Of a stretch of DNA of 64,000 nucleotides, positions 1-62,740 are shown one piece after another. The stretch comes from a virus. The notes below the pieces were generated by a model, which searched no databases, had not been told where the DNA came from, and saw nothing but the letters and a program-made list of their open reading frames with translations. Each line of letters starts with the position of its first letter. Within the stretch, counting starts at the first letter, position 1. The DNA lies in the IMG/VR virus record IMGVR_UViG_3300026488_000012, positions 1-64,000 of that record, one strand, 5' to 3'. The position numbers and the translations under genes are program-made.

Positions 1-117
1 CCTCTCTACCAAGTACTGCTCCTCTGGTGTGAAGGAGAAGGTCGAGACTAACCCCGGTGGTATAAGGGGAGTCAGAAGACCTTCTCGACGAAGAGGAGAC
101 GTGGAACGGTAGAGAGG
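1..117 (+). ncRNA. Structured 5' leader RNA, copy 1 of a three-copy family
   Basis: P1 cctctctacc(1-10)/ggtagagagg(108-117); P2 ctcctct/agaggag; P3 gagaaggtc/gaccttctc; P4 gact-aa-cccc/gggg-agtc; loops AAGUAC, GGUGUGAAG, GACGA, AGAA shared with the other two copies; SD aaggag follows at 122-127. Confidence 0.75.
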
Positions 118-127
118 TTAAAAGGAG

Positions 128-544
128 ATGAATATGAGAAAATTATTTTTGACAGGTTATTATTATCAGGATAGTACTTGCGACGGGTGGATCTTGGAAT
201 TATGGAATCTCGAAAAAGATGAGTGTTTACTCACATTAGATTTAACTGACCCCTATGACTGGAGGAATGCCCAATTCCTCCACCTCAGGGGTATACTAAT
301 AACCCCTGAGGTGGAAGATTATGAACTGTTAAAGTTACCTAGTGATAGGTACGATACCACTGCATGCGTTCTTTTACTGAACCCGGACGTTGTTATAGAT
401 GAAGATCAGAGATATAGAATAATCAATGTCTCTGATCTCACCGACGCCGAATTAAAAAGGCTAGGGAAATATACAACCCTGGCCAAGGAGGAATACTTAA
501 GAAGATTAAAAGAGAGATATCAGAAGGCAATAGAAAGCCTCTAA
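128..544 (+). CDS. Hypothetical accessory protein behind structured leader (start may be ATG 134)
   Basis: 138-aa ORF, SD aaggag at 122-127, followed by hairpin plus T-tract; no family recognised. Confidence 0.75.
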   Translation: MNMRKLFLTGYYYQDSTCDGWILELWNLEKDECLLTLDLTDPYDWRNAQFLHLRGILITPEVEDYELLKLPSDRYDTTACVLLLNPDVVIDEDQRYRIINVSDLTDAELKRLGKYTTLAKEEYLRRLKERYQKAIESL

Positions 545-563
545 TATCTCTCTTTTTTTTTCT
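511..563 (+). terminator. Intrinsic terminator
   Basis: agagagatat(511-520)/atatctctct(545-554) with inner agaaggc/gcctct pairing, then a T-run. Confidence 0.6.
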
Positions 564-594
564 TTTACGTGAAGTTATTTTTAAAGGAAAAACT

Positions 595-1389
595 ATGGAT
601 GCTATAACTAAAGCTTTAAACGATATAAAATTTGAGATACCTAGAGATATACTTAACTTAGCATTCGTTAACAGATACAACTATTACACTGCTGAAGTTA
701 TATCTTTAGATAAATCTATAACTGATAACGTAATCAATGCTAAAGTACTACCAGATTTAAACGTCGTTAGAGGACAGGAAGTCTCTATACCTTTAGAATA
801 TTGCGATATAATAAATGTGACACCTAATCCCTACGTAATGGAAACAGTTATAAAAGTACCTGCTAAATTACTTAACGGTAGAAACATCATAACACCTTTG
901 GCGATAGTATTCGAATCAGGTCCTATTACACCATATCAAAATGGTAATAGATTATTACAAACAGCTAATGCTGCTATAAATACTACTATAGGTACCGGAG
1001 GATTTTCTACTACAGATTTAGAACTCATAGGCAATAATACAGTCTTAGTACATGAGAATCTACCTATAGTATTAGGATTCTTAAGAGTTATGATAGAAAA
1101 TGATAGAAATATGAACAACCTTAATCCTAGATTTTACAACTACTTTTCACAGCTATGTATATATGCTACCAAGGCTTATATTTATAATACTCTAATCATA
1201 GACATAAATAAAGGGATAATAGTAGGAGGACACGAGTTATCTATTATTAAGAATATTATAGATAGTTATCAAGACGCAATAGAAAACTATAAAACATATT
1301 TAAAGGAATATATGGGTAAAATACTCTTTATGAACGATGATAAATCCTATAGTGATTATGTTAAAATGTTAGTAGACCCATTTGTGTAA
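595..1389 (+). CDS. phiKZ-like virion structural protein adjacent to head protease
   Basis: 264 aa; N-terminus MDAITKALNDIKFEIPRDIL resembles a conserved phiKZ-like structural family usually next to the prohead protease (recall, not searched). Confidence 0.6.
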   Translation: MDAITKALNDIKFEIPRDILNLAFVNRYNYYTAEVISLDKSITDNVINAKVLPDLNVVRGQEVSIPLEYCDIINVTPNPYVMETVIKVPAKLLNGRNIITPLAIVFESGPITPYQNGNRLLQTANAAINTTIGTGGFSTTDLELIGNNTVLVHENLPIVLGFLRVMIENDRNMNNLNPRFYNYFSQLCIYATKAYIYNTLIIDINKGIIVGGHELSIIKNIIDSYQDAIENYKTYLKEYMGKILFMNDDKSYSDYVKMLVDPFV

Positions 1390-1402
1390 GATATCCCGAG
1401 TA

Positions 1403-1418
1403 TACGATGATTTAATAC
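1403..1418 (+). promoter_or_regulatory. Putative late promoter motif
   Basis: TACGATGATTTAATAC; 15/16 identical to 11648-11663; both precede head-protein genes. Confidence 0.5.
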
Positions 1419-1435
1419 TATATAAGGAGTAAAAT

Positions 1436-2224
1436 ATGTCAAAGGTAAAAACTATTGCTACAAAAGCCATAGAAAAAGGCGTGAAGAACACGTATGTGAA
1501 AGATGAAAACGGATATTACAAAATAAGATTAGGTAGGTTTAATACTTTTAATAGATCTGGTATATACTATAGGGTAGCTAATCTAGATGAAGTAACTGGT
1601 CCAAATAGTATATTTTACAAAAGACTCACATCTGGTTACTTAAGATCAGAGGTATCCCATCCTGAAAGGATAAGAGAGATAGGTGAAAAATTAAGAAGAG
1701 ACCCTAGTAATGTTAAGTTAAGAACAGAACTTGTAAAAGCCGTGATGTTTCTAGACCTAGAAAACGTATGTGCGCATATTAAGAAAGTAGAATTCGTTAA
1801 CACGGATAAAAGAGAACCTGGATTCAATCTACCTATAATCGATGTATGGGGTTGGGTGAAACCATCCGGACCTAAAAAACAGATATTACAAGAAGCCTTA
1901 GATAACCCAGATGAGAATGTTGCCTTCAGTATAAGATCAGTAACTACGGATAGTTTTATAGGTAGGACTATTGTGAAGGACATTAAAGTCATATCTACAT
2001 GGGATTATGTATATGAACCGGGTATTAGTGGTAGTAGTAAATGGGCTGGTGCTGGTATAGAATATAGTCTAGACGCATCTATAAAAGAAATAGATGATAA
2101 GGTAATTTCAGAAATATCATATGGCATAGAGTCGGCTTGTGAAGATGGTCAATGTGCTTTAGACGCTATTAAAAGAATTAAAGAAAAATACCAAGATACA
2201 TTTAAAAAATGGTTATTTAAATAA
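1436..2224 (+). CDS. Prohead/head maturation serine protease (phiKZ gp175-like)
   Basis: Motifs LGRFNTFNRSG, YLRSEVSHP (catalytic His), AFSIRS (catalytic Ser), TWDYVYEPGI; candidate C-terminal auto-cleavage sites AGIE and YGIE. Confidence 0.9.
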   Translation: MSKVKTIATKAIEKGVKNTYVKDENGYYKIRLGRFNTFNRSGIYYRVANLDEVTGPNSIFYKRLTSGYLRSEVSHPERIREIGEKLRRDPSNVKLRTELVKAVMFLDLENVCAHIKKVEFVNTDKREPGFNLPIIDVWGWVKPSGPKKQILQEALDNPDENVAFSIRSVTTDSFIGRTIVKDIKVISTWDYVYEPGISGSSKWAGAGIEYSLDASIKEIDDKVISEISYGIESACEDGQCALDAIKRIKEKYQDTFKKWLFK

Positions 2225-2253
2225 CATATGTCGGGATCATCCCGACATATGTT
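2223..2253. terminator. Bidirectional terminator hairpin
   Basis: 14-bp stem aacatatgtcggga/tcccgacatatgtt between convergent protease and endolysin genes. Confidence 0.75.
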
Positions 2254-2262
2254 GTTATAATA

Positions 2263-3018
2263 TTAATCAGATTTTACGAATAAATATCTATCGTTTATTA
2301 ACCAGTCTTTTTTATACTTCATTAATCTTACCTTTAAAACGTCATAAACGTGATGTCTGGATATATCGCAAGGACTCCTCCTACCATATAAAGGTTTATG
2401 ACTAGCTGTACAAGTCCTTTCTACATTACCGAACCATTTATTAGGATTACAGTTTTTAGTCATCTTACACAACATTCTATCTCTATACGTTCTATAATAT
2501 CCTTGATTATAACTAGCGTCAGACATAGCTAATCTATTATAATCATTTATGTTTTTAGAGAATTTATACCAGTTACCTTTCCACAGTAATAACATAGCTC
2601 TTATTTGTAAGTCTGGTCTATTGTAAACGTTATTCCAGGATAACTCATTGAGCTCTTTTCTATATCTTCTTTTTAAAGTTTTTATAATATCAAATCTAAG
2701 CTTACCATTCTTTTTCCATACTCTCGTTAATTGAGCCAGTCCTGCACCTTCCTCTCTTTTAGTCTTAAGTCTGGCTTTAGGATTCCAACATCTTTTCCAA
2801 CAAAGACTGATACACGATTCATGTTCTATTAAACTACCAAAGTAGTAAGGATATTTAAAATCTTTACCTATTAGTCTGTATACCTCTTCATACATGGTGG
2901 GTAAGTACTTTCTGGCATTCTCGGGTATATCCTTTCTAACATCCAAATTACACTTAGCGTGTGATAAGTCAAAAACAATTAACAATAGTGTTAGAATAAT
3001 GAATAACATTCTAAACAT
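2263..3018 (-). CDS. Lytic transglycosylase (SLT-like) endolysin with N-terminal signal peptide
   Basis: Hydrophobic N-terminus MFRMLFIILTLLLIVFDLSHA; catalytic EHES, GAGLAQLT and ASYNQG motifs; 8 Cys. Confidence 0.85.
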   Translation of the reverse strand: MFRMLFIILTLLLIVFDLSHAKCNLDVRKDIPENARKYLPTMYEEVYRLIGKDFKYPYYFGSLIEHESCISLCWKRCWNPKARLKTKREEGAGLAQLTRVWKKNGKLRFDIIKTLKRRYRKELNELSWNNVYNRPDLQIRAMLLLWKGNWYKFSKNINDYNRLAMSDASYNQGYYRTYRDRMLCKMTKNCNPNKWFGNVERTCTASHKPLYGRRSPCDISRHHVYDVLKVRLMKYKKDWLINDRYLFVKSD

Positions 3019-3085
3019 AAGTCCGCTCCTTGAAAAAATAAATTCACACTAAATGAAAAAATAATTTGTACAAAAAAAACAATTA

Positions 3086-3103
3086 TATATAGTTAAACTG
3101 TAA
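3086..3103 (+). promoter_or_regulatory. Putative early promoter (18-nt motif)
   Basis: TATATAGTTAAACTGTAA, ending 12 nt before structured leader copy 2. Confidence 0.65.
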
Positions 3104-3115
3104 CAAAATAAAAAA

Positions 3116-3230
3116 CCTCCCTGTCAAGTACTGCTCTCCCGGAGAAGGAGGAGACTAAGACTCATCCCGTTGTTAGTAGGGAAGTTAGAAAGTCTCCTCG
3201 ACGAAGGAGAGATGTGGAAAGACAGGGAGG
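3116..3230 (+). ncRNA. Structured 5' leader RNA, copy 2
   Basis: P1 cctccctgtc/gacagggagg; P2 ctctcc/ggagag; P3 gaggagact/agtctcctc; P4 gact-ca-tccc/ggga-agtt; loops AAGUAC, GGAGAAG, GACGA, AGAA, GAAA; SD follows. Confidence 0.75.
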
Positions 3231-3246
3231 TATATAAGGAGAAAAT

Positions 3247-4014
3247 ATGGAAAAAATAAAAGAAACTTATTTAAGAGTTTTCAAAGAAGTAGCAGATAAA
3301 AACGCTACTTTAGATTTCTTTAAGGGAGGACTTACAAACGACTACTTCACAAGTCATGAATATGATAGTTATTTTGCGGGAGAACAAAAACTGCAAAATA
3401 ACTATCAATTGTTTTCACGTATTATTTTGGAAAATGATAAGGAGGCTATTAATTTATTTTATGGTTACTTTATATCTCCTTTTGCCAAAAAGGATCTTAG
3501 TATATTCAGAATTGGATATTACTTTTATAAGAACAAATGTCTTCCTAAAGTTACAATTGAAAAAATTAATTTACTTCTATTAGAGAGGCTCGAAAATGAA
3601 TTCGAGAAATTTCAATTTGATATTATAAAGGAAATGGTTCAGAGAAAGGGGTACTTGAATTTTACAGTGGTAGAAGAAAAGATAAAGCTTAAGAATGAAA
3701 GGAGAAGATTATTCGAAGAGAATATTCCTTTTAAAGAAATTAATTATAATTATAGTAGGGGTATAGTTAATTATATCTTTGAAGGTGAGAAATGTCTTTA
3801 TAATCTGGGAGACTATAAAGGCATTCTAATAAACCACAAACTTACGGACCTTGAAGTAATTCCTGCTCTATCTAGCAGGGCGGGATTTTTTAAGAAGAAC
3901 GGCGAGTTATATTACTACGCCGGGTATGGTCGTGAAGAAAGAATAGGGGAATGTCTCTACTATGATGTAAACCGTAATGGGGATGCAATAATACTAAAAA
4001 GGAGAAAAAAATGA
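3247..4014 (+). CDS. Hypothetical early accessory protein
   Basis: 255-aa ORF with SD aaggag, downstream of promoter motif and structured leader; no family recognised. Confidence 0.75.
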   Translation: MEKIKETYLRVFKEVADKNATLDFFKGGLTNDYFTSHEYDSYFAGEQKLQNNYQLFSRIILENDKEAINLFYGYFISPFAKKDLSIFRIGYYFYKNKCLPKVTIEKINLLLLERLENEFEKFQFDIIKEMVQRKGYLNFTVVEEKIKLKNERRRLFEENIPFKEINYNYSRGIVNYIFEGEKCLYNLGDYKGILINHKLTDLEVIPALSSRAGFFKKNGELYYYAGYGREERIGECLYYDVNRNGDAIILKRRKK

Positions 4015-4472
4015 ACAAAATATATAAACTAAATGACGTTGTTTTCGTCGTAGTAAACGAGAATGAATTAGGCGTTATGATAAATAACGATATATATCCG
4101 TTAAGAGACAAAAAGGACGCTATTCTTCTAGCGTCTATAATAGGAAAAGAGACTAAAGAGGACTCAATATTTACCTCAATACGTCTCGAAAGGTTAGTAA
4201 GCAGATATATAAACTCTATATATAGCGATATATATAGAGCCTACGATTTTTTACAATTAAACTATGGGCATCTATACAAGGATACCTTCAAAATAGCGAG
4301 AGCACGTTACTGCGCTCTTTGCCACTGTAAGGGGTATTCCCCGGTCATTTACTACGAGGGGAACTGTAGTCATAATACAGAGTTCTGCGACGAAGACGTC
4401 GCGCTGTGTATAAAGAAAGGTTTTGTAAAGAAGTTTAAAAGAATCTTAAAGGAAAGAGGGTTTTTGAAATAA
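4011..4472 (+). CDS. Hypothetical protein with C-terminal Cys/His cluster
   Basis: ATGA overlap with upstream gene; YCALCHCKG...NCSH...FCDEDVALC. Confidence 0.7.
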   Translation: MNKIYKLNDVVFVVVNENELGVMINNDIYPLRDKKDAILLASIIGKETKEDSIFTSIRLERLVSRYINSIYSDIYRAYDFLQLNYGHLYKDTFKIARARYCALCHCKGYSPVIYYEGNCSHNTEFCDEDVALCIKKGFVKKFKRILKERGFLK

Positions 4473-4508
4473 TCCTCTTTCCATTTGTATTTCTATTTTT
4501 TTTATTTA

Positions 4509-4526
4509 TATATAGCTAAAGTGCAA
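4509..4526 (+). promoter_or_regulatory. Putative early promoter (18-nt motif)
   Basis: TATATAGCTAAAGTGCAA upstream of the SD of 4550-5140. Confidence 0.65.
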
Positions 4527-4549
4527 CAAAAAAAAATTAAGGAGTCGAA

Positions 4550-5140
4550 ATGAAAAGAGCAATTGAAAGTTTAAAAAATCTAGTAGTTAATCCGGATATA
4601 TTTCACGTAGAGAATACCGATGACTTTGATATAGGTAGAACAGAATTTAGATTACTTATACCGGATATCAATAAGAACATTAAAGTTATTAGAAAGGTGA
4701 CTGAAGTTTTGAATATCGTTATGGCTAAAAGAATTGAAAATAAAATAGTAACCGACTATTATATAGAAGGTTACGACAGAGTAAGAAAAATAAAAAATGA
4801 TGATAGCGTTAAATATTACGACATAGAGGGACATACCGTCTTTAAAACAATAAGAGAAATAGAAAAAGACGAGTTTAAAGAACTCATCAAAAAAAGTCAT
4901 ACTACCGTAATAAAACACATAGCGGCATACAAAAAAATAGCAGAAGACTTCGAAGTCTGTTTTGAATATATAATACATGGTAACAGACTTCATTTTAGTG
5001 TTGAATTAGAGGTCAACGATATCCACGACGGGTTAAGCTGGTTAGAAAGTTTTGTAGATTTATTAAATTTAAAATCAGGGGATTATCATATATCCTCTGA
5101 GCCGTTGATAGATTTATTATACGATATAAACAAGAAGTAA
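4550..5140 (+). CDS. CYTH-superfamily (triphosphate tunnel) -like protein, divergent
   Basis: Motif order RTEFRLLI (ExExK-like), TDYY...RVRK, K-x-x-x-x-Y, FEVCFEY, FSVELEV (ExE) and ~200-aa size fit CYTH. Confidence 0.5.
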   Translation: MKRAIESLKNLVVNPDIFHVENTDDFDIGRTEFRLLIPDINKNIKVIRKVTEVLNIVMAKRIENKIVTDYYIEGYDRVRKIKNDDSVKYYDIEGHTVFKTIREIEKDEFKELIKKSHTTVIKHIAAYKKIAEDFEVCFEYIIHGNRLHFSVELEVNDIHDGLSWLESFVDLLNLKSGDYHISSEPLIDLLYDINKK

Positions 5141-5167
5141 CGGTAGGGTTATCCCCTACCGTTACTT
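5135..5167. terminator. Bidirectional terminator hairpin
   Basis: 14-bp stem aagtaacggtaggg/ccctaccgttactt containing both convergent stop codons. Confidence 0.75.
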
Positions 5168-6232
5168 TATTTTTTCTTTTATATTCTCTATCATAGATTC
5201 TACTAACATCCTGTCTATAGGTTCAAGCTTTCTACTTATACTTCTTTTTTCATAGTCAAAAATAGTTAATAAGATATCGTTAGTAAATTCTCTATCCTTC
5301 TTTATATAATCAGTTATAGAGGATAAGTTATTAAGCATTGCCAACATATATACCCACATATTCTCATTATCCACATAAGATACAAATCTATTAAGTTCAT
5401 CTATAGTTTTATCCATTATCAAGACTCTTTTAGCAAAATCATAGTAGTCTTTATATCTCTGTTTAAGTATTATTTTCTTATACTCGTTGTTAGCTCTATA
5501 CAGAAAATTATCAAGATTAGTCAATCCGCCTACGTTTTTATCGTATAATGTTTCCAACTCGTATTTGTTATTTAAATAAAAAAACAAATTGTTATAATAA
5601 GTATATTTGTTTAGACTGTCTATAATACTTAAAAAAGGATATTGATGTAAGTAGATAGCTATATCTATATTATCGTTATTTTTTACTCGTTCGATCATCC
5701 ATAGTTTATACTGTAAAACAAGCTCGACGATGTTTACTTTATAAATAACAAATGATGCTTGTAGGGATACACCATAAGGATGCGATATGATTAAGTTTAA
5801 GTTATCAGTAGAAATAACTTTTATAGGTTTTAAATCTCTCCAGTTATCTTCTAACTCTAACAGATTTACATCGTCATATTCTTCTACTATAAATATTTCA
5901 GCAACATTGTCAAATATAACATTTGTTAATCCTTTTCCTATATTAGCACTACTTACAAAACCAAACTTATTACTTAAATGGATATGTACCTCTGTTAATA
6001 TATCGTATAATTCAAATACATCCTTATCCATATAAATACTCATATCGTGTATGAGTGATATAAATGGATTAGGTCTCTTTATAGAGAAGTTTCTTGTCCT
6101 ATAATAATACTCTAACTCATACAGATTGTTATAGTAACTAGATACAAAATATGGTAATGATTTAGGTAGTTGTCTTGGGGGTTCTGAAATGGAATCTTCA
6201 AACATAGAGAAATAACTCATTAACTTTAACAT
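5162..6232 (-). CDS. Conserved chimallivirus-type hypothetical protein divergent from chimallin
   Basis: 356 aa, SD aaggag; size and divergent position upstream of chimallin resemble the phiKZ gp52-like core gene (recall). Confidence 0.55.
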   Translation of the reverse strand: MLKLMSYFSMFEDSISEPPRQLPKSLPYFVSSYYNNLYELEYYYRTRNFSIKRPNPFISLIHDMSIYMDKDVFELYDILTEVHIHLSNKFGFVSSANIGKGLTNVIFDNVAEIFIVEEYDDVNLLELEDNWRDLKPIKVISTDNLNLIISHPYGVSLQASFVIYKVNIVELVLQYKLWMIERVKNNDNIDIAIYLHQYPFLSIIDSLNKYTYYNNLFFYLNNKYELETLYDKNVGGLTNLDNFLYRANNEYKKIILKQRYKDYYDFAKRVLIMDKTIDELNRFVSYVDNENMWVYMLAMLNNLSSITDYIKKDREFTNDILLTIFDYEKRSISRKLEPIDRMLVESMIENIKEKIK

Positions 6233-6408
6233 GTATACTCCTTGAAGTTATAAAAATTTTATTTCCAAATACAAACAGTCCTATTTAATTCATATGAAGG
6301 AGTGGTAACTATTGAAGAAACTCCTTCACTAATAATTGAGTTTACTCGCTTTAAAGCGAGAGTGTAGAAGCGGTAGAAGGAAATTTTATTTCCAACAGCA
6401 AATGTTGT

Positions 6409-6426
6409 TATCTTACTAAATTGCAA
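6409..6426 (+). promoter_or_regulatory. Putative early promoter (18-nt motif) for chimallin
   Basis: TATCTTACTAAATTGCAA, identical to 22913-22930 and 60769-60786. Confidence 0.7.
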
Positions 6427-6458
6427 AATTAAACCAAATTTAAGAAAAGGAGTCAAAA

Positions 6459-8258
6459 ATGGCTGTAAACGTTAAAAAAGGAACAGTTGAAAATAAAGTA
6501 GAATTAGGTTTCGGAATGGAAGAAAATGTAACTGCAAGAGTTGAAAATGAATCTAAAGGAGGTTTCGGAATGAAATCAAGTATATTTTCAAAATTTATGA
6601 AATTTAATATGGGTAGCGAATATACTAATAAAATCAAAGATAAATTAGCAGAAATCCTAAGAGAACAAAACGAATTCTCTTATAAAATCTTTGTATTTGA
6701 TAATACAAGCGGCGCGTATAATGGGTGGCCGTATAGTTTTATTGTACCAGTATTGTTTAACAATAAAACTAAAAAGGCTTTTTATGTACCGTTGCTATTA
6801 GAAGCTACTGGCAGAGGCCCAGTAGACATTAGACAAGTTTTGGAAATCGATCCTCAAAGAGGATTTGTTAAAATCAAAGATCAGAGTGCATTGTTTATGC
6901 CTAGTGACTACTTTAACGATATCGTACTAGGTGAAATTGAGAAAGTAATTCAGACAAACTTGCCTGATAGAGAAGTTACATATGTAGATGGGGAAATCAT
7001 CCCTAGTGAGGCAGATATTGATAAAATAGGTTTCTTCGTTGCGTTGGATGTATATAACGGCGCGTTTGTGTACGAATTATATACAGACGGAGATTTCGTA
7101 GACCTATACGCAGGTGAGTTAGTAGAGGATAAAAGTTATCAGCTATTTGAAGATGTAGTTTTGAATGTTGGAAATGGTATTAACAGACTTGGCAGAGTAA
7201 CTGCCCTCGATTTTAATATCAAACTACAATTAAGAAAACAAAGTAATAACCAACTGCCTACGATGATGAATTATAATAGAAATATAGGCGATGTGACTGG
7301 TTATATAGAACAGGCACTAGTTGTACAGAAAGATATAATGGGTAACACCATTAGAAAAGGGGTACCAGTTATCATAGTTAACGATATAGACACTGAGTAC
7401 CCTACACTAGGATATACATTATTGAACCTTGCCAACACTGCTGTGTTTGGTCACCAAAACATTTTACTGAATGCTCTCTACAATAAACCAAATATCGGAG
7501 CTTTGAATTATATTGTTAACGTAGAAAAAGCTCAAGAGTTTGGTAAGAAAGTTAACTTAAAGGATACTAAATACACTATTGACAAAGCATTTGCGTTCTT
7601 GAGCAAAATGTTCATTGTGAATAATTATGCAGTAGCATTTGAAACTGAACTAAATGGTAGAGAGTATTTCAAGACTTCGGTATTTGCAGCGTTAGTAGAT
7701 AGAAACGCTTGGAAGTCTGCGAATGATTTTATCGTATCTACTGCTGAACAGTTGACTGGTTCTAATTTCGAAAATAGAACTGTATTTACATATGCTATTG
7801 AAGTTCCAGTAGGGACATGGGTAGACGCGAATGGTAATATCAGAGATATTAGAGAAATTGACTTATCCACTATCTGTTCATTAACAAATGATATTAACCT
7901 AATCCAAAAATGGTTGCTAAGTAATGAGGACCCTGCGACTTCAGGTATCGATCCGTTCATTACGAAACTAGAAGTTTTACTAAAATTAGGTATCGATGCT
8001 AAAGTTGAAAATAAAGCTGTAAGGGTAATGATGAACCCAGGCTTTATGAGTGAACTCATTACTAAACTACAAAGCATCGGGATTAATCCAGTTGTTAACG
8101 CTAATGCTATCCAGACAACAGCATTCATCGATATGGCTAGCCTCGGTACTAGCAGCATTACAGCGGCTATGCTTAACGCACAATTCGGGGCTATGCCTGG
8201 ATTCGGCAATAACTACAATATTCAGAATTTTGGTAGATTCAGCGGGTTCTTCAGATAA
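6459..8258 (+). CDS. chmA: Chimallin, major phage nuclear shell protein
   Basis: 599 aa; segments VPVGTWVDANGNIRDIREIDL and KAVRVMMNPGFMSELITKLQSIG parallel the chimallin C-terminal half (IDLGNW...RDRRDLD; KAERCTYNAKFIEAL); low-complexity termini; upstream of nvRNAP beta'. Confidence 0.85.
   Translation: MAVNVKKGTVENKVELGFGMEENVTARVENESKGGFGMKSSIFSKFMKFNMGSEYTNKIKDKLAEILREQNEFSYKIFVFDNTSGAYNGWPYSFIVPVLFNNKTKKAFYVPLLLEATGRGPVDIRQVLEIDPQRGFVKIKDQSALFMPSDYFNDIVLGEIEKVIQTNLPDREVTYVDGEIIPSEADIDKIGFFVALDVYNGAFVYELYTDGDFVDLYAGELVEDKSYQLFEDVVLNVGNGINRLGRVTALDFNIKLQLRKQSNNQLPTMMNYNRNIGDVTGYIEQALVVQKDIMGNTIRKGVPVIIVNDIDTEYPTLGYTLLNLANTAVFGHQNILLNALYNKPNIGALNYIVNVEKAQEFGKKVNLKDTKYTIDKAFAFLSKMFIVNNYAVAFETELNGREYFKTSVFAALVDRNAWKSANDFIVSTAEQLTGSNFENRTVFTYAIEVPVGTWVDANGNIRDIREIDLSTICSLTNDINLIQKWLLSNEDPATSGIDPFITKLEVLLKLGIDAKVENKAVRVMMNPGFMSELITKLQSIGINPVVNANAIQTTAFIDMASLGTSSITAAMLNAQFGAMPGFGNNYNIQNFGRFSGFFR
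6486..6572 (+). repeat. 54-nt-period tandem duplication in chimallin 5' end (VEN...GFGM x2)
   Basis: gttgaaaat at 6486 and 6540; ggtttcggaatg at 6507 and 6561. Confidence 0.7.
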
Positions 8259-8315
8259 GGACCCGTCTCTACCTTTTTTTTTTGTTTTATTGTGATTTAA
8301 AGACAAGGAGGTACG

Positions 8316-9404: not shown

Positions 9405-9417
9405 AAAAGTAAGATAT

Positions 9418-9446: not shown

Positions 9447-9472
9447 TTTTTGTTTTAAACTTTATATATTGT

Positions 9473-15196: not shown

Positions 15197-15199
15197 TAA

Positions 15200-54012: not shown

Positions 54013-54031
54013 AGGTTAACCTCTAGAGTAT
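54004..54031 (+). terminator. Terminator (perfect 28-bp palindrome)
   Basis: atactctagaggtt|aacctctagagtat. Confidence 0.6.
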
Positions 54032-54055
54032 AATTTATTTAAACAAGGAGTAACA

Positions 54056-54739: not shown

Positions 54740-54764
54740 CGGGTGCTATAACCCGTTAGAGTTG
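54731..54764. terminator. Bidirectional terminator hairpin
   Basis: caactctaacgggt/acccgttagagttg. Confidence 0.75.
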
Positions 54765-54768
54765 ATAT

Positions 54769-57700
54769 TTAAGTTTGTATATGTATTATAGGTATATCAT
54801 TTACCTCATCATCTGGATTAACATGTATGGTAGGTGTATCTATATTATCGGCGATAGGCATATTTGTAGTTTTATCTTGGACTATATCTTCATTAGGATC
54901 GTACCCGGAGGCATCTGGTTTATGGTTCTCTGGAATGACCTCAGTATTACCAGATTGATAAGTATCTGTTATTTCATTATTCTTAGTTATATGTAACTTC
55001 TCAGGTGGTATAGTTTTTATATCTATGTCTTTATTCGTTTGTGAAATATCCATATTAACATTACCAGGGTAGATGATGTCTGGTGTCAGATGTTTTAGAC
55101 TTCTATTGTCGTTGTAACCTATATAGAGTTCGGATACTTCATCTACTTCACCTATGATTAATCTCTTAGGTAATTCATATCCAATATTTGATAAATTATC
55201 TATTACTATATCATCGTTAGGATCATAACCAGAAGCTGAAGGACTATATCCTGCTGGTAGTATATCATCTGTTACCTGTTTCTCTATATATGTTGTTATA
55301 TTGTCATTATCAGAAACTATATTAAGAGTTTCTGGTTTAACTCTTGTAATAGTTCTATCTATACCGTCCTGTACATCTATTTTAGGACTGTCTTTTACTA
55401 TACCAGGTTTATACGGACTAGGAGGATTAATACCCTTATTTAGATATATGTTTGTAGATAGGTATTCATCTGTGGAATCTATTTTTAATTTTCTAAATTC
55501 AGTAACATCAACTTGTCTTGTAGATTCGTTTTCATTTATTGTATCTCCGTAGTTAGTTACCAAGTTAGTTTCAGGAGAAAATATCTTAGGTAATCTATAA
55601 TAACTACTATATTCTGTTACTACTGATTCAGTTAGTTCATTAAGTTGTAATAATTTAGGTATAACTGGTCTTGTTTCAGAATAGACTTTATCGGATTTTA
55701 TATGTTCACCTATCTCTTCATCAGTAATATAAATAGGTGGTTTATATAGACTCGTAATATATCCTGTAGTTAAAGGTGAATATACGTCCAAGTCGCCGTT
55801 ATCGGCTTTATAAACTGTAGAGTCTGATTTAGATAGAACTCCTGTAGTTATCTCATCACCTGTGCTTCTTATAGTAACAGGTCTTTCTAATATCTTTTTA
55901 GTATTATCAACTTCGTATTCATCTATATCGTATTTAGGTATATAAGTAGTCTTGTTGAATATAGGTTTATAAAAGTCAGGTAACCTATTTCCGAAATTAG
56001 TAAAACAGATGCCCGTATCTATCATATTTCTACCCTGTATATTCTGTAACTTTAAACGATAATTACCATAGATACTGAAAGTATACAGACTGTTTTTACT
56101 TATTACTTTATCAGATATTTTAATAAACCTATTATAAAGACGTTTATCAACTTTATCGTATAACCTTATATCTGAATCCATAACCGATGCAAAACAACTC
56201 ATACCCGTACTTGGTTTCAGAGTCTGATATTCTCCTGTTATCGTATATGGTATTTTATTGTCTAGTAATATCTGAACTGTATATCCATTTGTCTTTTTAA
56301 AAATATTGATTAATTGTGCAATCTTACTATTAAATAAATCGAAGTCGTATATGTTACGACCTATTATAGTTTCTATCAGTTTCTTAAACGTATATTTATA
56401 ATAAGGTTCTGCTATATCCATATTAGGAAAATTCACTAATTTTTCTAAATCTGATAATTTTAATCCATTTACTAAATCAACATTACCAGATATAAAAAAT
56501 GAGTTAAACAGATACATTAAGTCCATACTGTATAGTACATCGTTAACATTAGACAGGTAAAACCAGAATTTATCCATGACTTTAAAACTTATATCGAAAT
56601 ACTTATTAAATCTTTCTAAAGTTGTTATATCCTTAGGTAAGTTTTTAAAATCATTAGTTATTTCGTTTACTATATCTTTTAGACTGTTACCTGTAAACGG
56701 TAACGGTTCAAATTCGTAGTTTTTAGCCTTTTTAACATCTAGGATGTTTGTATAATATAGATTTCCTATGGTTGGATTAGTTTCTTTATTATAGTAGATA
56801 TTAAACATAAGTTTCAGAAGTAATGCAAACACTTGTCTACTATTTAAGTTGTAAACTATACCATCAGATGGATTATGGAACATTAAATAAGAACCATTTG
56901 AATCATTGTTTATTTCATATATTAGAGAATTTATAAAATAAGTGAACTTATTGACATCATCAGTTATAAGAAGTATAAGTTTATCAATCTCTAATACTTT
57001 CGATGTTTCCTGTGTAGGGATACTGAATCTGAATTTCTCGTCAGCTTCCATAGATATGGAGGTTACCTTATTATAATCATTAAGGTATCCCTGTGAATAT
57101 TCCTTTTCTAAGATATCTTCAAATGTCTCTTTACGCGCAAGACTGATACTATACTTATCGTTAGCCTTGACTCTCTCTATAAGTGTTTTCCTATCATACG
57201 AGATATATGTATTACTATTATACTCTACTGTTGTAGCTATAGGTCTCGATTTAACAACTAACGTCTTACCTATACCTAACCCAGTATCGTTAAATACTTT
57301 ATCCAGTAACATATCTAATACCTCGTTTTTACCTATATTAGTTTTAATATAAGATAAAGCACCGTATAACCAAGTTAACGTCTTCCTATCCAGTACAGTT
57401 ATATCCTCATCCATAAATTTATAACTTCTAAAGTACTGTAATATGTGAAAATCATCTGCGTTAGAAGTTAAAACATATTTAAGTTTTTCGGTAAGTATAA
57501 CAGCTGGTAATACCGAATAAAGATTAGATACTAAACCGGCTGGATATAGTTCATCTATAACATATTTATCATTATCGTATCTTTTTAAGAAATCATATAT
57601 AAAGTTTTGAACATTATGCATTACTAACTTATTATCACTATTAAATAACTCGTTATTATACCATAATATTTCTCCGTTGTTACTCTCTATTATTTTATCT

Positions 57701-58095
57701 ATAGTAAAACCACCAGCTATACAACCCTTTATATATGTTATATGTTCAGGATACTTAGAGACAAGATTATCGTAAAAATTACCAAATGTTTTAAGTTCCT
57801 TAGCTAGAATTTCATACTCATTAACTAAATCGGGGGTAAGTATCATCTCTTTTTGTATGTCTGGTACATAAACCATAACAGGTACATCCCTATCGTAGTG
57901 AATACCAGCTAAATTTAAACAATAACGATTACCATAACAATCTAAGACATTCTCTCTAAATAACTTCCATTGTACGATTCTACTAAGAGTAGCTAACGTA
58001 TCAAGTTTGATATGTATAGACTTAGATATTCGAATAGAACGTTTAATATATTCAGTCAGACTCATTTTTTCTAATTTAACAGAATTATCAATCAT
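54769..58095 (-). CDS. Virion structural protein (phiKZ gp128-like) with extended repetitive C-terminus
   Basis: 1108 aa, divergent from the portal; Y.LNLAGI.Y.RD and LYG...YIK.N.GK...L..L motifs; C-terminal duplicated ASGYDPNxDIV unit. Confidence 0.6.
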   Translation of the reverse strand: MIDNSVKLEKMSLTEYIKRSIRISKSIHIKLDTLATLSRIVQWKLFRENVLDCYGNRYCLNLAGIHYDRDVPVMVYVPDIQKEMILTPDLVNEYEILAKELKTFGNFYDNLVSKYPEHITYIKGCIAGGFTIDKIIESNNGEILWYNNELFNSDNKLVMHNVQNFIYDFLKRYDNDKYVIDELYPAGLVSNLYSVLPAVILTEKLKYVLTSNADDFHILQYFRSYKFMDEDITVLDRKTLTWLYGALSYIKTNIGKNEVLDMLLDKVFNDTGLGIGKTLVVKSRPIATTVEYNSNTYISYDRKTLIERVKANDKYSISLARKETFEDILEKEYSQGYLNDYNKVTSISMEADEKFRFSIPTQETSKVLEIDKLILLITDDVNKFTYFINSLIYEINNDSNGSYLMFHNPSDGIVYNLNSRQVFALLLKLMFNIYYNKETNPTIGNLYYTNILDVKKAKNYEFEPLPFTGNSLKDIVNEITNDFKNLPKDITTLERFNKYFDISFKVMDKFWFYLSNVNDVLYSMDLMYLFNSFFISGNVDLVNGLKLSDLEKLVNFPNMDIAEPYYKYTFKKLIETIIGRNIYDFDLFNSKIAQLINIFKKTNGYTVQILLDNKIPYTITGEYQTLKPSTGMSCFASVMDSDIRLYDKVDKRLYNRFIKISDKVISKNSLYTFSIYGNYRLKLQNIQGRNMIDTGICFTNFGNRLPDFYKPIFNKTTYIPKYDIDEYEVDNTKKILERPVTIRSTGDEITTGVLSKSDSTVYKADNGDLDVYSPLTTGYITSLYKPPIYITDEEIGEHIKSDKVYSETRPVIPKLLQLNELTESVVTEYSSYYRLPKIFSPETNLVTNYGDTINENESTRQVDVTEFRKLKIDSTDEYLSTNIYLNKGINPPSPYKPGIVKDSPKIDVQDGIDRTITRVKPETLNIVSDNDNITTYIEKQVTDDILPAGYSPSASGYDPNDDIVIDNLSNIGYELPKRLIIGEVDEVSELYIGYNDNRSLKHLTPDIIYPGNVNMDISQTNKDIDIKTIPPEKLHITKNNEITDTYQSGNTEVIPENHKPDASGYDPNEDIVQDKTTNMPIADNIDTPTIHVNPDDEVNDIPIIHIQT

Positions 58096-58175
58096 AACTA
58101 GTCCTTATACGTTAATTTCAAGCTAAACCATTACCTGATTAACCGGAATTAATTTATATAGAAAGGAGAATAAAA

Positions 58176-60713
58176 ATGGGTAAAAAATTAGTACCTGAAC
58201 ATATAGACGCTAAGAAAATATTGAGAGAACTCGATAAAAAAGAACCTATAAACGTAGACATAAGTGAGTTATATAGAATAGTATCAGATACTGAAGAAAA
58301 ACTAAATCTAAACGAAGATATATTTAATCTATTCCCTAACATAAGTTTAGCTATAGAAATTATGACAAGTAGTATAGTTTCTGCAAACACTATGATAGAT
58401 AGTGATTATAGTCTTACTCTTAAAACTAAAATACTACCTAATGAAGTTGTGAATAGCATTATGTCTTCTATTAAAGAACACGTGGATACACATTACAAGT
58501 TTAAGGATAAACTATACACTATAACAGAGGAGAGTATATTTACAAAAGGAGCATATATAGAATTGATTTTGCCTCCGGACATACTTGTAGATATACATAA
58601 GAAACTGACAAGAATGGAAAGAAAATTATCAGCTGGTGTTGAAGACGCGCTCTCATACTTCGATAATAAAGTAAGTAGTAAACTTATTGACTTTAGAAAG
58701 GCTAATAAAATAAGCACTGATTCTGAAAAAGAGTTAAAAGCATTAGGCCTTAATCCTGGATTATTAGACATTACTGAAAATTATGCATTATTAAACTCCG
58801 AGAAAGTCATTGAAGATTTTGTAAACTATAAAGATAAGAGTCTGAATAGATTATCAGAAGGATTAGAGGACTTTAAAATAATAGACCAGATGTTAACTAT
58901 AGACGAATACATAGAATTAGAAAATGAATACAGTAAAGCATTTGTTAAGAAATTAAATCCTAGTAATGTAATTCCTATAGCAGACATAGATGACCCATCT
59001 AAACACTATGGATATTTCTTAATCCTGAATTCAAATGGTAAACCTATAAACATAGACGACGAGAAGAGTTATGAAGATAAATTAAAAGAAATGTTCAGTA
59101 TAACTACGGAAAGTAGTACTAAAACTCCTGGTAGTAATATAATCAGTGAAGCTAAAAGGAATATATCTAGTAAAACTAAAAACACACCAGCTTTAAGCGG
59201 TGCTGTAAACATAATAAACAGATTATTAAGAGAGAAGATAGATAACGCTATTAAGCATAGTGTATTTAAAGATATGGTTAAATTTGATTTAGAACTAAAA
59301 GACGATATACTAATGGCTATATATGAAAAAATGAAAAGAGGAGATAAAGTTAAAATAGTGTTTGTTCCTAAGAGGTATATACAATATACAGCAGTAGACT
59401 ATAGAAGTAATGGTACAGGTAAATCAGTTATGGAGGATTTATCAGTATTAGCTAGTTTAAAAGCGATGTTGTTTCTAACAAGATTATCAGGGATGATAAA
59501 ATCGCATATAACTATCACAGAAGTTGATATAGAGTTAGACGAAGATGATCCTAACTATGAATTTACATTAAAGAAAATAATTAATCAGATAAAGAGAAGC
59601 AGACAAATGCAGCTACCTATAGGTATGCTAAAATTAGATAGTATGGTAGACTGGTTACATAATGTAGGATTTAAGTTTAATCCTAAACACCCCGGATTAG
59701 CAGATATAAAAGTAGAAATAAATGAGAAAAGATACGATCCTCCTAGCGATGATAATGGATTAGAAGAACTACTTGATAAATATATGATATTAAGATTAGG
59801 ATTAACGCCAGAGATAATTGATAACAGTTACAGTCCTGACTTTGCTACTACTATAGTAGCTAATAACTTACTACTGAATAGAAGAGTCTTAAAAAGACAG
59901 AATCAATTATCTCCACATCTAACAAACAATATAGTTAAATACGTAGAAAATGACCCTATCCTATATAACAAGATATTGTCTATACTAGAGTCTAACCTAC
60001 CTGAAATCAAAAAGAAATTAAAGAAAACTATTACAAACACTGAACTATCTAAAAAGATTTTACGTCTGAATAAGAAGTCACTGGTTAACTGGCTGTTTCA
60101 TACAGTTCTTAAAAATTTAGACTGTAGATTACCAAAACCTGAATTTAAAGACGAAGATATTCAAGGAGATATGTTCGAAGAATATGTAAGTAGGTTGGAT
60201 AAATTGTTAGATAACTTCTTAAACACAGATTTATTCACAGATGACTTAATAGGAGAGTTAGGAGAGAAAATAGAAAATCAAAAAGCAGTAATTAAAACTA
60301 TACTTCTTTATAAATGGTTAAGCGAGAATAGACCTATACCAGAACTTAACGATATGCTAAGCCTCGATGAAGATGGTAAACCTGTTTTAAAACTTAGTGA
60401 TGAGTATAAGAACTTAGTGGAAGTATTGAAAGAGAATATACTAGACCTATTAAAAGAGATGAATAAATTTAGAAAGAAAACAGATGAGAAAATAGAAAAA
60501 CTAGATGAAGAGTCGGATGAATATACAGATGAAGAAGACAACGGAGAGGAAAGTAATATAGAGGAACCGATAGGAGAAAACGAAAATAATGAAGAAGGAA
60601 ATAATGAAGAAGAAGGCGATGAAACAGGAGGAAGTGAAGAAGGTGAATCCGAAGAAGACGAGTCTGAAGAAGGTGAAAACCCTGAGGATGATTTAACAAA
60701 AGGATTATTTTAA
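58176..60713 (+). CDS. Portal protein (phiKZ gp129-like)
   Basis: 845 aa; IFNLFPNISLAIEIMTSSIVS, KKLNPSNVIP...HYGYFLIL, DYRSNGTGKS, IELDEDDP motifs; acidic C-terminal tail. Confidence 0.8.
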   Translation: MGKKLVPEHIDAKKILRELDKKEPINVDISELYRIVSDTEEKLNLNEDIFNLFPNISLAIEIMTSSIVSANTMIDSDYSLTLKTKILPNEVVNSIMSSIKEHVDTHYKFKDKLYTITEESIFTKGAYIELILPPDILVDIHKKLTRMERKLSAGVEDALSYFDNKVSSKLIDFRKANKISTDSEKELKALGLNPGLLDITENYALLNSEKVIEDFVNYKDKSLNRLSEGLEDFKIIDQMLTIDEYIELENEYSKAFVKKLNPSNVIPIADIDDPSKHYGYFLILNSNGKPINIDDEKSYEDKLKEMFSITTESSTKTPGSNIISEAKRNISSKTKNTPALSGAVNIINRLLREKIDNAIKHSVFKDMVKFDLELKDDILMAIYEKMKRGDKVKIVFVPKRYIQYTAVDYRSNGTGKSVMEDLSVLASLKAMLFLTRLSGMIKSHITITEVDIELDEDDPNYEFTLKKIINQIKRSRQMQLPIGMLKLDSMVDWLHNVGFKFNPKHPGLADIKVEINEKRYDPPSDDNGLEELLDKYMILRLGLTPEIIDNSYSPDFATTIVANNLLLNRRVLKRQNQLSPHLTNNIVKYVENDPILYNKILSILESNLPEIKKKLKKTITNTELSKKILRLNKKSLVNWLFHTVLKNLDCRLPKPEFKDEDIQGDMFEEYVSRLDKLLDNFLNTDLFTDDLIGELGEKIENQKAVIKTILLYKWLSENRPIPELNDMLSLDEDGKPVLKLSDEYKNLVEVLKENILDLLKEMNKFRKKTDEKIEKLDEESDEYTDEEDNGEESNIEEPIGENENNEEGNNEEEGDETGGSEEGESEEDESEEGENPEDDLTKGLF

Positions 60714-60714
60714 T

Positions 60715-60744
60715 ATATCTTACGGGTCGATGCCCGTAAGATAT
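60715..60744 (+). terminator. Terminator hairpin
   Basis: atatcttacggg/cccgtaagatat. Confidence 0.7.
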
Positions 60745-60768
60745 TTAATTTTCAAGTTTATATATTAT

Positions 60769-60786
60769 TATCTTACTAAATTGCAA
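60769..60786 (+). promoter_or_regulatory. Putative early promoter (18-nt motif)
   Basis: TATCTTACTAAATTGCAA preceded by TTTATATATT. Confidence 0.7.
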
Positions 60787-60842
60787 TAAAGCAGCGGGTA
60801 TAGACCCGGTAAAGAATTTAAATTTATTAAAAGGAGTAAACG

Positions 60843-61085
60843 ATGGTTAGTGCATATGTAGAACAATACACAATCGGAAAAAGAGGTTTAATGTTGATTT
60901 CTATGGATGGCGATATTATCATTTTCCATAGAGAGACTATCTCAAACTTGAAAATATACAAAACAGAAGAAGGTTTAGTATTCGAAATTAAAGATACAGT
61001 TGGAGATACATATAAGTTTGTTCTAGCTGACGGTGAACTTAACAATTCAGATGTTAAACTATTAAAAGAACTTTTAGTTCTTTAA
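60843..61085 (+). CDS. Small hypothetical early protein
   Basis: 80 aa, SD aaggag, beta-rich. Confidence 0.7.
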   Translation: MVSAYVEQYTIGKRGLMLISMDGDIIIFHRETISNLKIYKTEEGLVFEIKDTVGDTYKFVLADGELNNSDVKLLKELLVL

Positions 61086-61105
61086 CAAATAAAAAGGAGT
61101 AAAAA

Positions 61106-61771
61106 ATGAGCCCATATGGAAATAATAGTTTTGGAAATTTCACTAGACAACCTAACCAACAGCAGCAGTACCAAGGTCAACAACAAGGATTCCAGCAACA
61201 AGGATTCCAACAACAAGGATTTCAAAATTCTGGTTATCAACAACCACAATATAACCAAGTAAACCAGGGTGGAACTTTCGGTAATCAACAATTAACGCCA
61301 CAGCAAATGGCTATGTTGCAGCAACAGCTATTATTACAGCAAATGATGCAACAACAGGCTGCTATGAATACCCAGCCTATGACTAACATGGGGATGCAAA
61401 ACACAATGATGAATAACCCTATGACAAATAGTAGTGTAATGAATAACGCCATGGGTACAATGATGAACAACATGGTAAACCCTGGATTTAATAGCGTTAC
61501 GACGAACTCTACGAGTAGCATAGGTAGAAGAACATCGGGGTTTGCTAAACCGACTCAACAGCAAACTCAACAATCTACAAGTAGTTTCAATAACAAATTC
61601 AATTATAAAAAACAAGAAGAAAAATCTAAAGAAGAGCCTTTAGACTTTTCTAAGATGTCTCCTGAAGATGGACACGAATTTCCACCATACTACGACCCTG
61701 ATACACAAGTATTAAGGATAGTGGCTACTAGCAAAACTACATACAAATATGAAATAATAAACAAGAATTAG
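61106..61771 (+). CDS. Q/N/M-rich low-complexity (prion-like) protein with small folded C-terminus
   Basis: About 170 N-terminal residues dominated by Q/N/G/S/M/T/F; C-terminal FPPYYDPDTQVL; SD aaggag. Confidence 0.75.
   Translation: MSPYGNNSFGNFTRQPNQQQQYQGQQQGFQQQGFQQQGFQNSGYQQPQYNQVNQGGTFGNQQLTPQQMAMLQQQLLLQQMMQQQAAMNTQPMTNMGMQNTMMNNPMTNSSVMNNAMGTMMNNMVNPGFNSVTTNSTSSIGRRTSGFAKPTQQQTQQSTSSFNNKFNYKKQEEKSKEEPLDFSKMSPEDGHEFPPYYDPDTQVLRIVATSKTTYKYEIINKN
61178..61222 (+). repeat. 15-nt tandem repeat x3 encoding QQQGF
   Basis: caacaacaaggattc / cagcaacaaggattc / caacaacaaggattt. Confidence 0.85.
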
Positions 61772-61780
61772 GAGGTAAAT

Positions 61781-62515
61781 ATGAGTACTAAAACAAATGG
61801 AAAAAGAAAAGTAGAGTTGGATAACATTGTAGAAGATGAAATTCTAATAATAGAAGACCCTATAACAGAGCCTAATGCGTTAAAGGCTCTTGTTGACAAT
61901 TTAGATAAACCTTATATAACACATACTGTAAGGTTTGATGATGGAAAACAAATATCTAATAAAGATATAGTATTAATGAATGATATATTAAACACTAAAA
62001 TTACAGTAGATTCCAAAACCAAGAACATTATAGATAGTATACTAACTATGATAGTCAATAGGGAATTAAAGATGTCCACTAATGTCATAAGTATTGATTC
62101 CGTGGATAACGACTTAAAAGATTTGAGACACATAGAGGATGCCTTGTTGATGATGGGAATTAACAAATCTGTTAATTATCTACAACATTTATTAAAAATA
62201 AACGTAGATATCAAATTCAAACATACAGTAACTATCGTAGAAGAGGTTAATATTATCAGAACAGGAGTTAAAATAAAGATACCTCCTGAGTTAATAAATA
62301 CGCCTATGGATATAACGAGACATAGGATAATGATCGATTTGTTAAATGACTTAGGTATAGAAAATGACGATGAAATTCCATTAGTTAAAGATAAGTTAAA
62401 CTTGCTAATGGATGGAAATATGAACCTATTTATAATTAGTAGGAATATGCATAAAAGGATAGTAATTAAATTGTTTACCATTAGTGATTGTTATGTTGGT
62501 AAAATTATACAATAA
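61781..62515 (+). CDS. Hypothetical protein
   Basis: 244 aa, SD aggagg, same operon as the Q-rich gene. Confidence 0.7.
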   Translation: MSTKTNGKRKVELDNIVEDEILIIEDPITEPNALKALVDNLDKPYITHTVRFDDGKQISNKDIVLMNDILNTKITVDSKTKNIIDSILTMIVNRELKMSTNVISIDSVDNDLKDLRHIEDALLMMGINKSVNYLQHLLKINVDIKFKHTVTIVEEVNIIRTGVKIKIPPELINTPMDITRHRIMIDLLNDLGIENDDEIPLVKDKLNLLMDGNMNLFIISRNMHKRIVIKLFTISDCYVGKIIQ

Positions 62516-62545
62516 GACATAACCCGGGTATACGGGTTATGTCTT
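62514..62545 (+). terminator. Intrinsic terminator
   Basis: aagacataacccg/cgggttatgtctt followed by T-rich tract. Confidence 0.75.
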
Positions 62546-62591
62546 TTATTTTTTATATTTGTAATTTTTGAAATTAAAAGAAAAATGACTA

Positions 62592-62609
62592 TATATCGCT
62601 AAGATGTAA
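62592..62609 (+). promoter_or_regulatory. Putative early promoter (18-nt motif)
   Basis: TATATCGCTAAGATGTAA, ending 13 nt before structured leader copy 3. Confidence 0.6.
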
Positions 62610-62622
62610 TAAAACCGCAAGT

Positions 62623-62740
62623 CCTATCTGTCTAGTACTTATCTCCTGGTGTGGAAGGGGGAAGACACGACTAACCCCGTTGTCATATAGGGGGTCAGAA
62701 GTCTTCCCTGACGAAGGAGATTTAAGGAACGACAGATAGG
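62623..62740 (+). ncRNA. Structured 5' leader RNA, copy 3
   Basis: P1 cctatctgtc/gacagatagg; P2 atctcct/aggagat; P3 ggggaagac/gtcttccct; P4 gac-taa-cccc/gggg-gtc; loops UAGUAC, GGUGUGGAAG, GACGA, AGAA, GAAC. Confidence 0.75.

Follow-up and report, generated by a model that had tools for sequence, protein, structure and literature searches.

A repeated structured RNA leader with covarying helices and conserved loops precedes unrelated genes in an uncultured chimallin-encoding phage

Early mRNAs of phages T7 and SP82 carry RNase III processing hairpins between the cistrons of polycistronic RNA. In T4-type phages, promoter-early stem-loop (PeSL) cassettes place a repeated early promoter and a hairpin before unrelated, mostly ORFan genes (PMC2839356), and uncharacterised conserved RNAs from 5' untranslated regions (5'-UTRs) are found in jumbo phages that encode an RNA polymerase (RNAP), namely the early 5'-UTR motifs of AR9 and the small RNAs (sRNAs) of 201phi2-1 and phiKZ (PMC5312081, PMC11512511). 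The P2 arm of the lysine riboswitch, in turn, contains a loop E and a K-turn, the latter bending the arm so that its loop docks elsewhere (PMC3082890). Here, we describe a structured leader RNA of ~116 nt that is repeated before unrelated genes in a 64,000-nt stretch (the window) of the IMG/VR virus record IMGVR_UViG_3300026488_000012 and in the remainder of that record, a contig of 179,975 bp with a GC content of 30.5% (coordinates marked G000 refer to the whole record, all others to the window). The phage encodes chimallin (phrog_4795, 6459–8258) and the subunits of a split multisubunit RNAP, in agreement with a preliminary description of this DNA as that of a chimallin phage; its closest cultured relatives share ~36% identity in an RNAP subunit. 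We tentatively favour a reading of the leader as an optional, self-folding 5'-UTR module that may bind a trans-acting factor and set the translation or the fate of the mRNA for a subset of early genes.

Reading of the sequence places three copies of the leader on the + strand of the window, at 1–117 (copy 1, starting with the first base of the contig), 3116–3230 (copy 2) and 62623–62740 (copy 3), where the preliminary description had located them. A covariance model built from these three copies (R1) scores them at 138.4, 129.3 and 123.4 bits, respectively, and finds no further copy in the window. Applied to the whole record, it returns five full copies (starting at G000 1, 3116, 62623, 124328 and 142672), so that the earlier count of three was too low. 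Copies 4 (G000 124328–124444) and 5 (G000 142672–142787) lie, like the others, on the + strand, which is the coding strand. The five full copies represent four distinct sequences; the cores of copies 2 and 5 are almost identical, and their differences fall mainly in helix P1.

For the three window copies, RNAalifold predicts one rod without branches; 14 of its 37 pairs have changed on both sides, and each copy folds much better than its dinucleotide shuffles (z −4.8 to −6.1, the lower end also given as −7.0, with −5.8 for copy 2; 0 of 200 shuffles as good). The rod is composed of helices P1–P4, with a P1 of 9–10 bp that appears in every minimum free energy fold; the strands quoted earlier for P1, P3 and P4b match the sequence letter for letter, G-U pairs being present in copy 3. 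We then aligned, in a structure-aware manner, five distinct sequences, i.e., the four from this genome and a homologue from a related phage (L111). Of the paired cells in this alignment, 94.9% are able to pair, as against 42–52% when the partners are slid by 1–3 columns; compensatory change is seen in 18 of the 37 pairs, and none of 500 shuffles reached the observed values of pairing and covariation. Moreover, the fold of the + strand is better than that of the − strand by 1.1–10.2 kcal/mol in all five distinct sequences, consistent with the G-U pairs lying on the + strand, and thus a + strand RNA is indicated. Since the covariation far exceeds both the shuffled and the slid controls and reaches a homologue in another phage, these sequences argue that the RNA fold is clearly under selection. 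Hence, the initial proposal that covarying helices with conserved loops denote a functional RNA is borne out.

The homologue was found by way of the proteins encoded downstream of the leader (cargo proteins), whose own homologues in metagenomic phages led us to relatives. The covariance-model search that the preliminary description had recommended was run genome-wide and on these relatives, and it yielded both the additional copies and the L111 element. The latter is 137 nt long (L111:50–186; R1 39.9 bits, E 3e-8) and stands upstream of an orthologue (47% amino acid identity) of the 728-aa gene that follows copy 5. Its P1, P2 and P3 are entirely different in sequence, P2 having just 4 bp, and, owing to an additional hairpin, its distal part forms a three-way junction; the element nevertheless keeps GAGUACUG, GGGUGUGAAG, GACAAA, AAGUGGAAA and an A-rich 3' junction strand, and its distal hairpin loop reads GUUGUUAUUU. 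In a second relative, which carries an orthologue (75% identity) of the MYG1 gene behind copy 3, the contig begins within the element and its 3' part and Shine-Dalgarno (SD) site are intact; because the contig breaks inside the element, this suggests that the element is repeated in that genome too.

Three unpaired surfaces are kept while the helices vary. In the window copies, the recurrent unpaired strings are AAGUACUG, GG(UGU)GAAG, GACGA, AGAA and GUGGAAC. AGUAC (5' strand) and GGAA (3' strand) face each other between P1 and P2 throughout the five distinct sequences, and 5'-AGUA-3' opposite 5'-GAA-3' between Watson-Crick helices is, at the level of sequence only, the signature of a sarcin-ricin or S-turn/loop-E motif. 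The second surface, GG(N1-4)GAAG opposite GACRA, could form tandem G.A pairs in a K-turn-like arrangement, and copies 2 and 5 fit a K-turn (P2, GGA, then GA opposite GA beside P2). The third is an apical loop of 10–11 nt, GKUGKY, in which G and U alternate at two positions; this alternation favours recognition by shape or by a protein over pairing with one fixed RNA target. We infer the three-dimensional identity of all these loops from their strings. The element is a single arm, and the order of helix, S-turn/loop-E loop, helix, K-turn-type loop, helix and terminal loop is shared with another such arm, P2 of the lysine riboswitch (RF00168), to which it is not homologous; the element lacks the five-way junction, the lysine pocket, the terminator/antiterminator and any Rfam match. 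Conserved tertiary pairings were also sought, and none holds in all copies. We rejected a conserved pseudoknot of the apical loop with the upstream UAACAA, with GACGA in J3/2 or with J1/2, since each of these pairings suits some copies and fails in copies 1/4 and in others.

The apical loop also bears on the idea that the 5'-UTR releases a stable RNA with a trans-acting role, be it decoy, sponge or sRNA, and that the gene behind it is incidental. There is precedent for such an origin, as 8 of the 11 sRNAs of 201phi2-1 come from 5'-UTRs (PMC11512511); moreover, the multicopy arrangement would increase dosage, and several early UTRs contain UAACAA, the complement of the loop string UUGUUA. However, this complementarity fails in copies 1/4, 3 and 5, the alternation of G and U at two loop positions is incompatible with one fixed target, and neither a terminator nor a processing signal follows the element. 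Hence, we consider a trans-acting RNA very unlikely.

The fixed loops have to be considered together with the layout of the units in which they occur. The motif TATATAT[TA][AG][CT]TAA[AG]NTG[TC]AA is found 20–35 nt upstream of every leader copy, including TATATATAGTTAAACTGTAA at 3084–3103 before copy 2 and TATATATCGCTAAGATGTAA at 62590–62609 before copy 3, both on the + strand. Its recurrence before ~20 genes, among them those for chimallin and the RNAP subunits, marks it as a candidate early-type promoter; early promoter motifs of jumbo phages are AT-rich and centred near −10 (PMC7598289). The transcripts would accordingly start ~20–35 nt before the element. Sites of the form ..TTACTAA[AG]NTG[TC]AA.. 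begin in the window at 3084, 4507, 6416, 9480, 22920, 60776 and 62590, and more of them occur up to G000 179,887. These promoter-like sites come in two flavours, TATATAT..TGTAA and TATCTTACTAAA.TGCAA, and the leader RNA accompanies only the former. At least six genes have the same promoter and a short A-rich UTR without the element, and the UTRs at 153,414 and 124,296 of the record are near-identical but for the element inserted. Given that the same promoter and UTR stand before other genes without it, the element is, on this sequence comparison, an optional module.

Downstream, the element is followed after 4–10 nt by an SD site, so that the earlier observation that each copy ends a few nucleotides before an SD was correct. 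These sites are AAAGGAG at 121–127 for copy 1 (with the start codon of the 136-aa open reading frame, ORF, placed at 134), AAGGAG at 3236–3241 for copy 2 (predicted unpaired probability 0.98) and AAGGAG at 62749–62754 for copy 3, all read from the + strand sequence and the last also predicted to be accessible. If the short additional basal helix seen in copies 3 and 5 is taken into account, every copy has the base of its rod 4–6 nt upstream of the SD core (in copy 3, CCG at 62615–62617 may pair with CGG at 62741–62743). The predictions leave both the SD and the start codon accessible (probability of being unpaired 0.57–0.98), and the fold thus leaves the ribosome-binding site free, as had been stated before. 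No U-tract terminator follows the element, and no competing or alternative fold was found in the predictions. The unit of copy 3 is bracketed by two hairpins on the + strand, one resembling an intrinsic terminator with its T tract (62514–62555), which would close the upstream unit, and one terminator-like (63638–63663), which would end its own; it therefore appears to be a self-contained monocistronic cassette. A terminator-like hairpin with a U tract at 506–562, overlapping the end of the 136-aa gene, suggests that the latter unit is likewise monocistronic.

Taken as a whole, a unit would run from a terminator through an early-type promoter, an A-rich leader of ~20–35 nt, the ~116-nt element and an exposed SD to the gene. 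In the reading that we favour, the element would fold by itself into a stable rod whose helices are free to vary and on whose three fixed unpaired surfaces a trans-acting factor may dock, most likely a phage or host protein, with the ribosome as another candidate. Since the base of the rod abuts the 5' edge of the ribosome-binding region, the bound factor, or possibly the fold alone, could set the loading of the 30S subunit and/or the lifetime or routing of these early mRNAs. The four roles put forward in the preliminary description, namely export signal, enhancer, stabiliser and decoy, are conjectural. Both the factor and the regulatory outcome are presumed here; the 5'-UTR motifs of AR9 and the 5'-UTR-derived RNAs of 201phi2-1 and phiKZ, to which no role has been assigned, provide a precedent (PMC5312081, PMC11512511). 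The likeness to these RNAs ends with their position and setting, as none of them is known to form a covarying family with several copies, and neither sequence nor covariance-model similarity to the element was seen in blastn against GenBank phages or in the three cultured chimallin phages.

Several points weigh against a leader that binds a dedicated factor. The bulge of the K-turn-like surface has 5–6 nt instead of the 3 of a K-turn in copies 1/4, copy 3 and L111, i.e., three of five sequences, and L111 has GACAA for GACGA, i.e., A and not G at the second tandem position; because of these longer bulges and the GACAA of L111, the K-turn assignment is uncertain. When compared with a K-turn, the 3' strand has, in addition, one nucleotide too many. 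The L7Ae family, whose members bind K-turns, was not found in the 180-kb record, in which the best match to PF01248 reaches 12 bits and contains stop codons. The conservation of the loops may partly reflect shared ancestry, since the distinct sequences number five and come from closely linked sources. We infer transcription from the promoter motif, and with it the 5' ends. Finally, in front of an orthologue of the MYG1 gene with 71% identity, the place of the element behind this type of promoter is taken by another structured leader, rich in GC (L101:3143–3262), and MYG1 orthologues at ~54% identity have no such leader; for this reason, the element is, as far as these orthologues tell, dispensable for the MYG1 gene. 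The string GGUUGUUAUUUU, known from the apical loop of L111, recurs in the L101 leader, whose GCGG could pair with an upstream or a downstream CCGC, which would give two mutually exclusive folds. A search of Rfam with the relatives' leaders, including that of L101, returned no match. The end of a related phage contig also holds a ~140-nt perfect palindrome (L101:8461–8599), which we discarded as a leader homologue, for its covariance-model score is equal on both strands.

The proximity of the rod to the SD would also suit a passive structural leader, in which the rod insulates the SD against the sequence upstream, blocks 5'-to-3' or endonucleolytic decay or forms an RNase III-type site, with no dedicated factor involved. 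With its ~37 bp, the element amounts to a very stable duplex that only internal loops interrupt, placed directly upstream of an exposed SD. Strong AAGGAG SD sites are typical of hosts whose mRNAs are stabilised by 5' structures, and this phage uses such sites. A passive rod, however, has no need of internal and apical loops that stay invariant across copies with fully diverged helices, and the unstructured leader of ~20–35 nt that precedes the element means that it is not a 5'-terminal hairpin. As for RNase III, the element shares with the hairpins of T7 and SP82 that several similar long hairpins with internal loops stand upstream of the early genes of one phage. Each unit here, however, has its own promoter behind a terminator, and no polycistronic RNA is left to process; the copies are not intercistronic, their conserved loops match S-turn/K-turn-type signatures and not RNase III boxes, and the phage record encodes no RNase III. 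We therefore regard a passive leader as unlikely, while still giving it some weight.

The exposed SD and the variety of the cargo bear likewise on a small-molecule riboswitch, that is, an aptamer that controls the translation of the downstream gene. Conserved purine-rich internal loops within covarying helices, the location in the 5'-UTR and the resemblance to the lysine riboswitch P2 arm in the order of S-turn, K-turn and loop (PMC3082890) would be in keeping with an aptamer, and one of the cargo genes encodes a MYG1 phosphoesterase of the DHH type. The five proteins encoded downstream (136, 255, 282, 168 and 728 aa) nevertheless have no similarity to each other, and four of them belong to no family, so that the genes do not form a coherent set. 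Following copy 1 is a 136-aa protein without a family (134–544, + strand; family searches). Copy 2 precedes a 255-aa ORFan (3247–4014, + strand), which found only itself among 1.84 billion cluster representatives, and copy 3 precedes a 282-aa MYG1/UPF0160 (DHH-type) exonuclease (62761–63609, + strand; PF03690, E 1.6e-25). The 728-aa product of the gene behind copy 5 (G000 142,809–144,995) has no Pfam match; its N-terminus is very basic, and its last ~160 residues show a weak structural match to GNAT acetyltransferases (ESM Atlas, TM 0.54–0.61 by target). Searches of the cargo against Pfam, PHROGs and the ESM Atlas gave only the MYG1 family and this weak GNAT-like C-terminus.

Nor is there an expression platform, as no terminator, sequestration of the SD or competing fold was found, and a P1 of 9–10 bp would be stable without a ligand. 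In Rfam 15, no family matches the 64-kb window at its gathering score, and none overlaps the element at E<=10 (positions 1–3400), which agrees with the initial impression that this is not a known riboswitch or ribozyme. With an exposed SD and neither a terminator nor an alternative pairing, a classical riboswitch is unlikely on the predicted folds, and we judge the chances of any small-molecule aptamer to be small. Other resemblances were tried and rejected. The likeness to the hairpin ribozyme (AGAA, GUC, GGUAUA) places the motifs on the wrong strands and has no Rfam match, the T-loop string GGUGNRA is absent from copies 2 and 5, and a T-box Stem I, which has its K-turn at the base, a specifier loop with an S-turn higher up and interdigitated T-loops at the distal end, finds no T-box match in Rfam, the reverse motif order and, again, no GGUGNRA-like string in copies 2 and 5. 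A leader peptide was dismissed because the short ORFs that start from J2/1 in copies 2 and 5 are missing from copy 3 and have too short an SD spacing, and a retron or reverse transcriptase template because the genome encodes no reverse transcriptase.

On present evidence, the element is a new structured RNA family limited to a narrow clade of uncultured phages. GenBank phages gave no match in blastn. A later, broader covariance model (R2) found nothing in 15 IMG/VR records of chimallin phages whose RNAP is 34–45% identical, and covariance-model searches of three cultured chimallin phages were equally empty (18 other chimallin phages overall), as was that of the 21-kb loci of the closest long relative (62% RNAP identity). 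Pattern scans of IMG/VR, of JGI metagenomes and of GTDB genomes produced only chance matches, as judged by the covariance model; the first scan patterns demanded GACGAAG and a 9-nt spacer, which L111 fails, and absence from the JGI metagenomes and GTDB genomes is not firmly shown, because the patterns used there were too strict to admit L111.

This distribution matters for a special case of factor binding, in which the leader acts as a zip code by which some early mRNAs leave the early infection vesicle or the phage nucleus, or reach particular ribosomes; this was the foremost idea of the preliminary description. The phage encodes chimallin, and export of mRNA from such compartments is required, with no cis signal known (PMC12908238). 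Nevertheless, only five genes carry the element, and it is missing from the 18 other chimallin phages. Chimallin, the RNAP subunits and other early genes share the promoter type without having the element, which therefore cannot be a general export signal. A zip code thus seems a slim prospect.

The history of the copies themselves points to exchange between loci. Copy 1 and the copy at G000 124328 are exactly identical over 127 nt, and the contig end (~179,910–179,975) carries the first 66 nt of the element, the final bases excepted, after the same promoter; upstream of this partial copy, the promoter and the terminator half are the same as at 124,270. On account of this identity and the matching contig end, the pair is, by its sequence, a recent duplicate or the product of gene conversion. 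The preliminary view that the copies are not a recent duplication therefore holds among the three window copies and fails for copy 1, whose exact twin lies outside the window. A ~185-nt cassette of promoter, leader and SD was recently copied or homogenised between the two loci, and the simplest reading is that the end and the start of the contig join, giving copy 1 its promoter at the contig end. Both contig ends (G000 1–127 and 179,860–179,975) fall inside one promoter-leader cassette, and hence the record probably closes on itself at ~179.9 kb. The completeness of 66% quoted for it is probably an underestimate, because two relatives of ~186 kb have terminal repeats and yet score only 69% in CheckV.

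At the level of the cassette, the nearest analogue is the PeSL system. Like PeSL, the units are promoter-adjacent, repeated and transcriptionally self-contained, they stand before mostly ORFan genes, and copying of cassettes is indicated here too, with two loci sharing an identical ~185 nt. PeSL hairpins, in contrast, are simple G/C terminator stems that lie at the promoter or around it and whose sequence is conserved (PMC2839356), whereas the element is a four-helix transcribed leader of ~116 nt before the SD, with no U tract, covarying helices and invariant internal loops. It would thus be conceivable that the element works at the level of DNA, as a PeSL-like homology patch or a single-stranded DNA hairpin that shuffles accessory genes, with the RNA fold incidental. 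The identical promoter-leader-SD stretch at two loci, the break of the contig inside it and the self-contained units, from terminator to terminator, agree with this, and PeSL cassettes of T4-type phages behave in such a way (PMC2839356). Homology patches, however, keep sequence and not pairing, while here the helices diverge by compensation around fixed loops. Moreover, the G-U pairs make the two strands asymmetric, orientation and SD spacing are constant, and no integrase-type feature was seen. We consider a purely DNA-level role highly improbable.

A few further observations concern the surrounding sequence. ARAGORN found tRNA genes nowhere in the record. A near-perfect hairpin of ~16 bp at 268–327, inside the coding region of the 136-aa gene, gave chance matches to microRNA families of Rfam. 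Two islands that are GC-rich within this genome of 30% GC, at G000 70,317–70,411 and 74,397–74,603, lie outside the window and were folded only; one of them directly follows a TATATTAC motif.

Returning to a leader that binds a factor, nucleus-forming phages keep transcription apart from translation, and both the export of mRNA from the early vesicle or phage nucleus and the selection of mRNA are, according to reviews, unexplained (PMC12908238). We speculate, as a long shot, that the element is a cis-acting address tag on selected early mRNAs, that its S-turn-like and K-turn-like surfaces and GKUGKY are read by a dedicated factor of the phage or the ribosome, and that it gives these mRNAs privileged export, ribosome access or a timed shut-off. 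The family is known from few uncultured phages, and its cargo genes are mostly without a family. It is, at the same time, a new and compact fold whose loops are S-turn-like and K-turn-like, open to study in vitro without the host, and a modular, strongly selected RNA on some early messages offers a handle on whether these phages sort or time their mRNAs by RNA tags. If the address tag proved true, the phage-nucleus system would have its first signal for sequence-specific mRNA handling.

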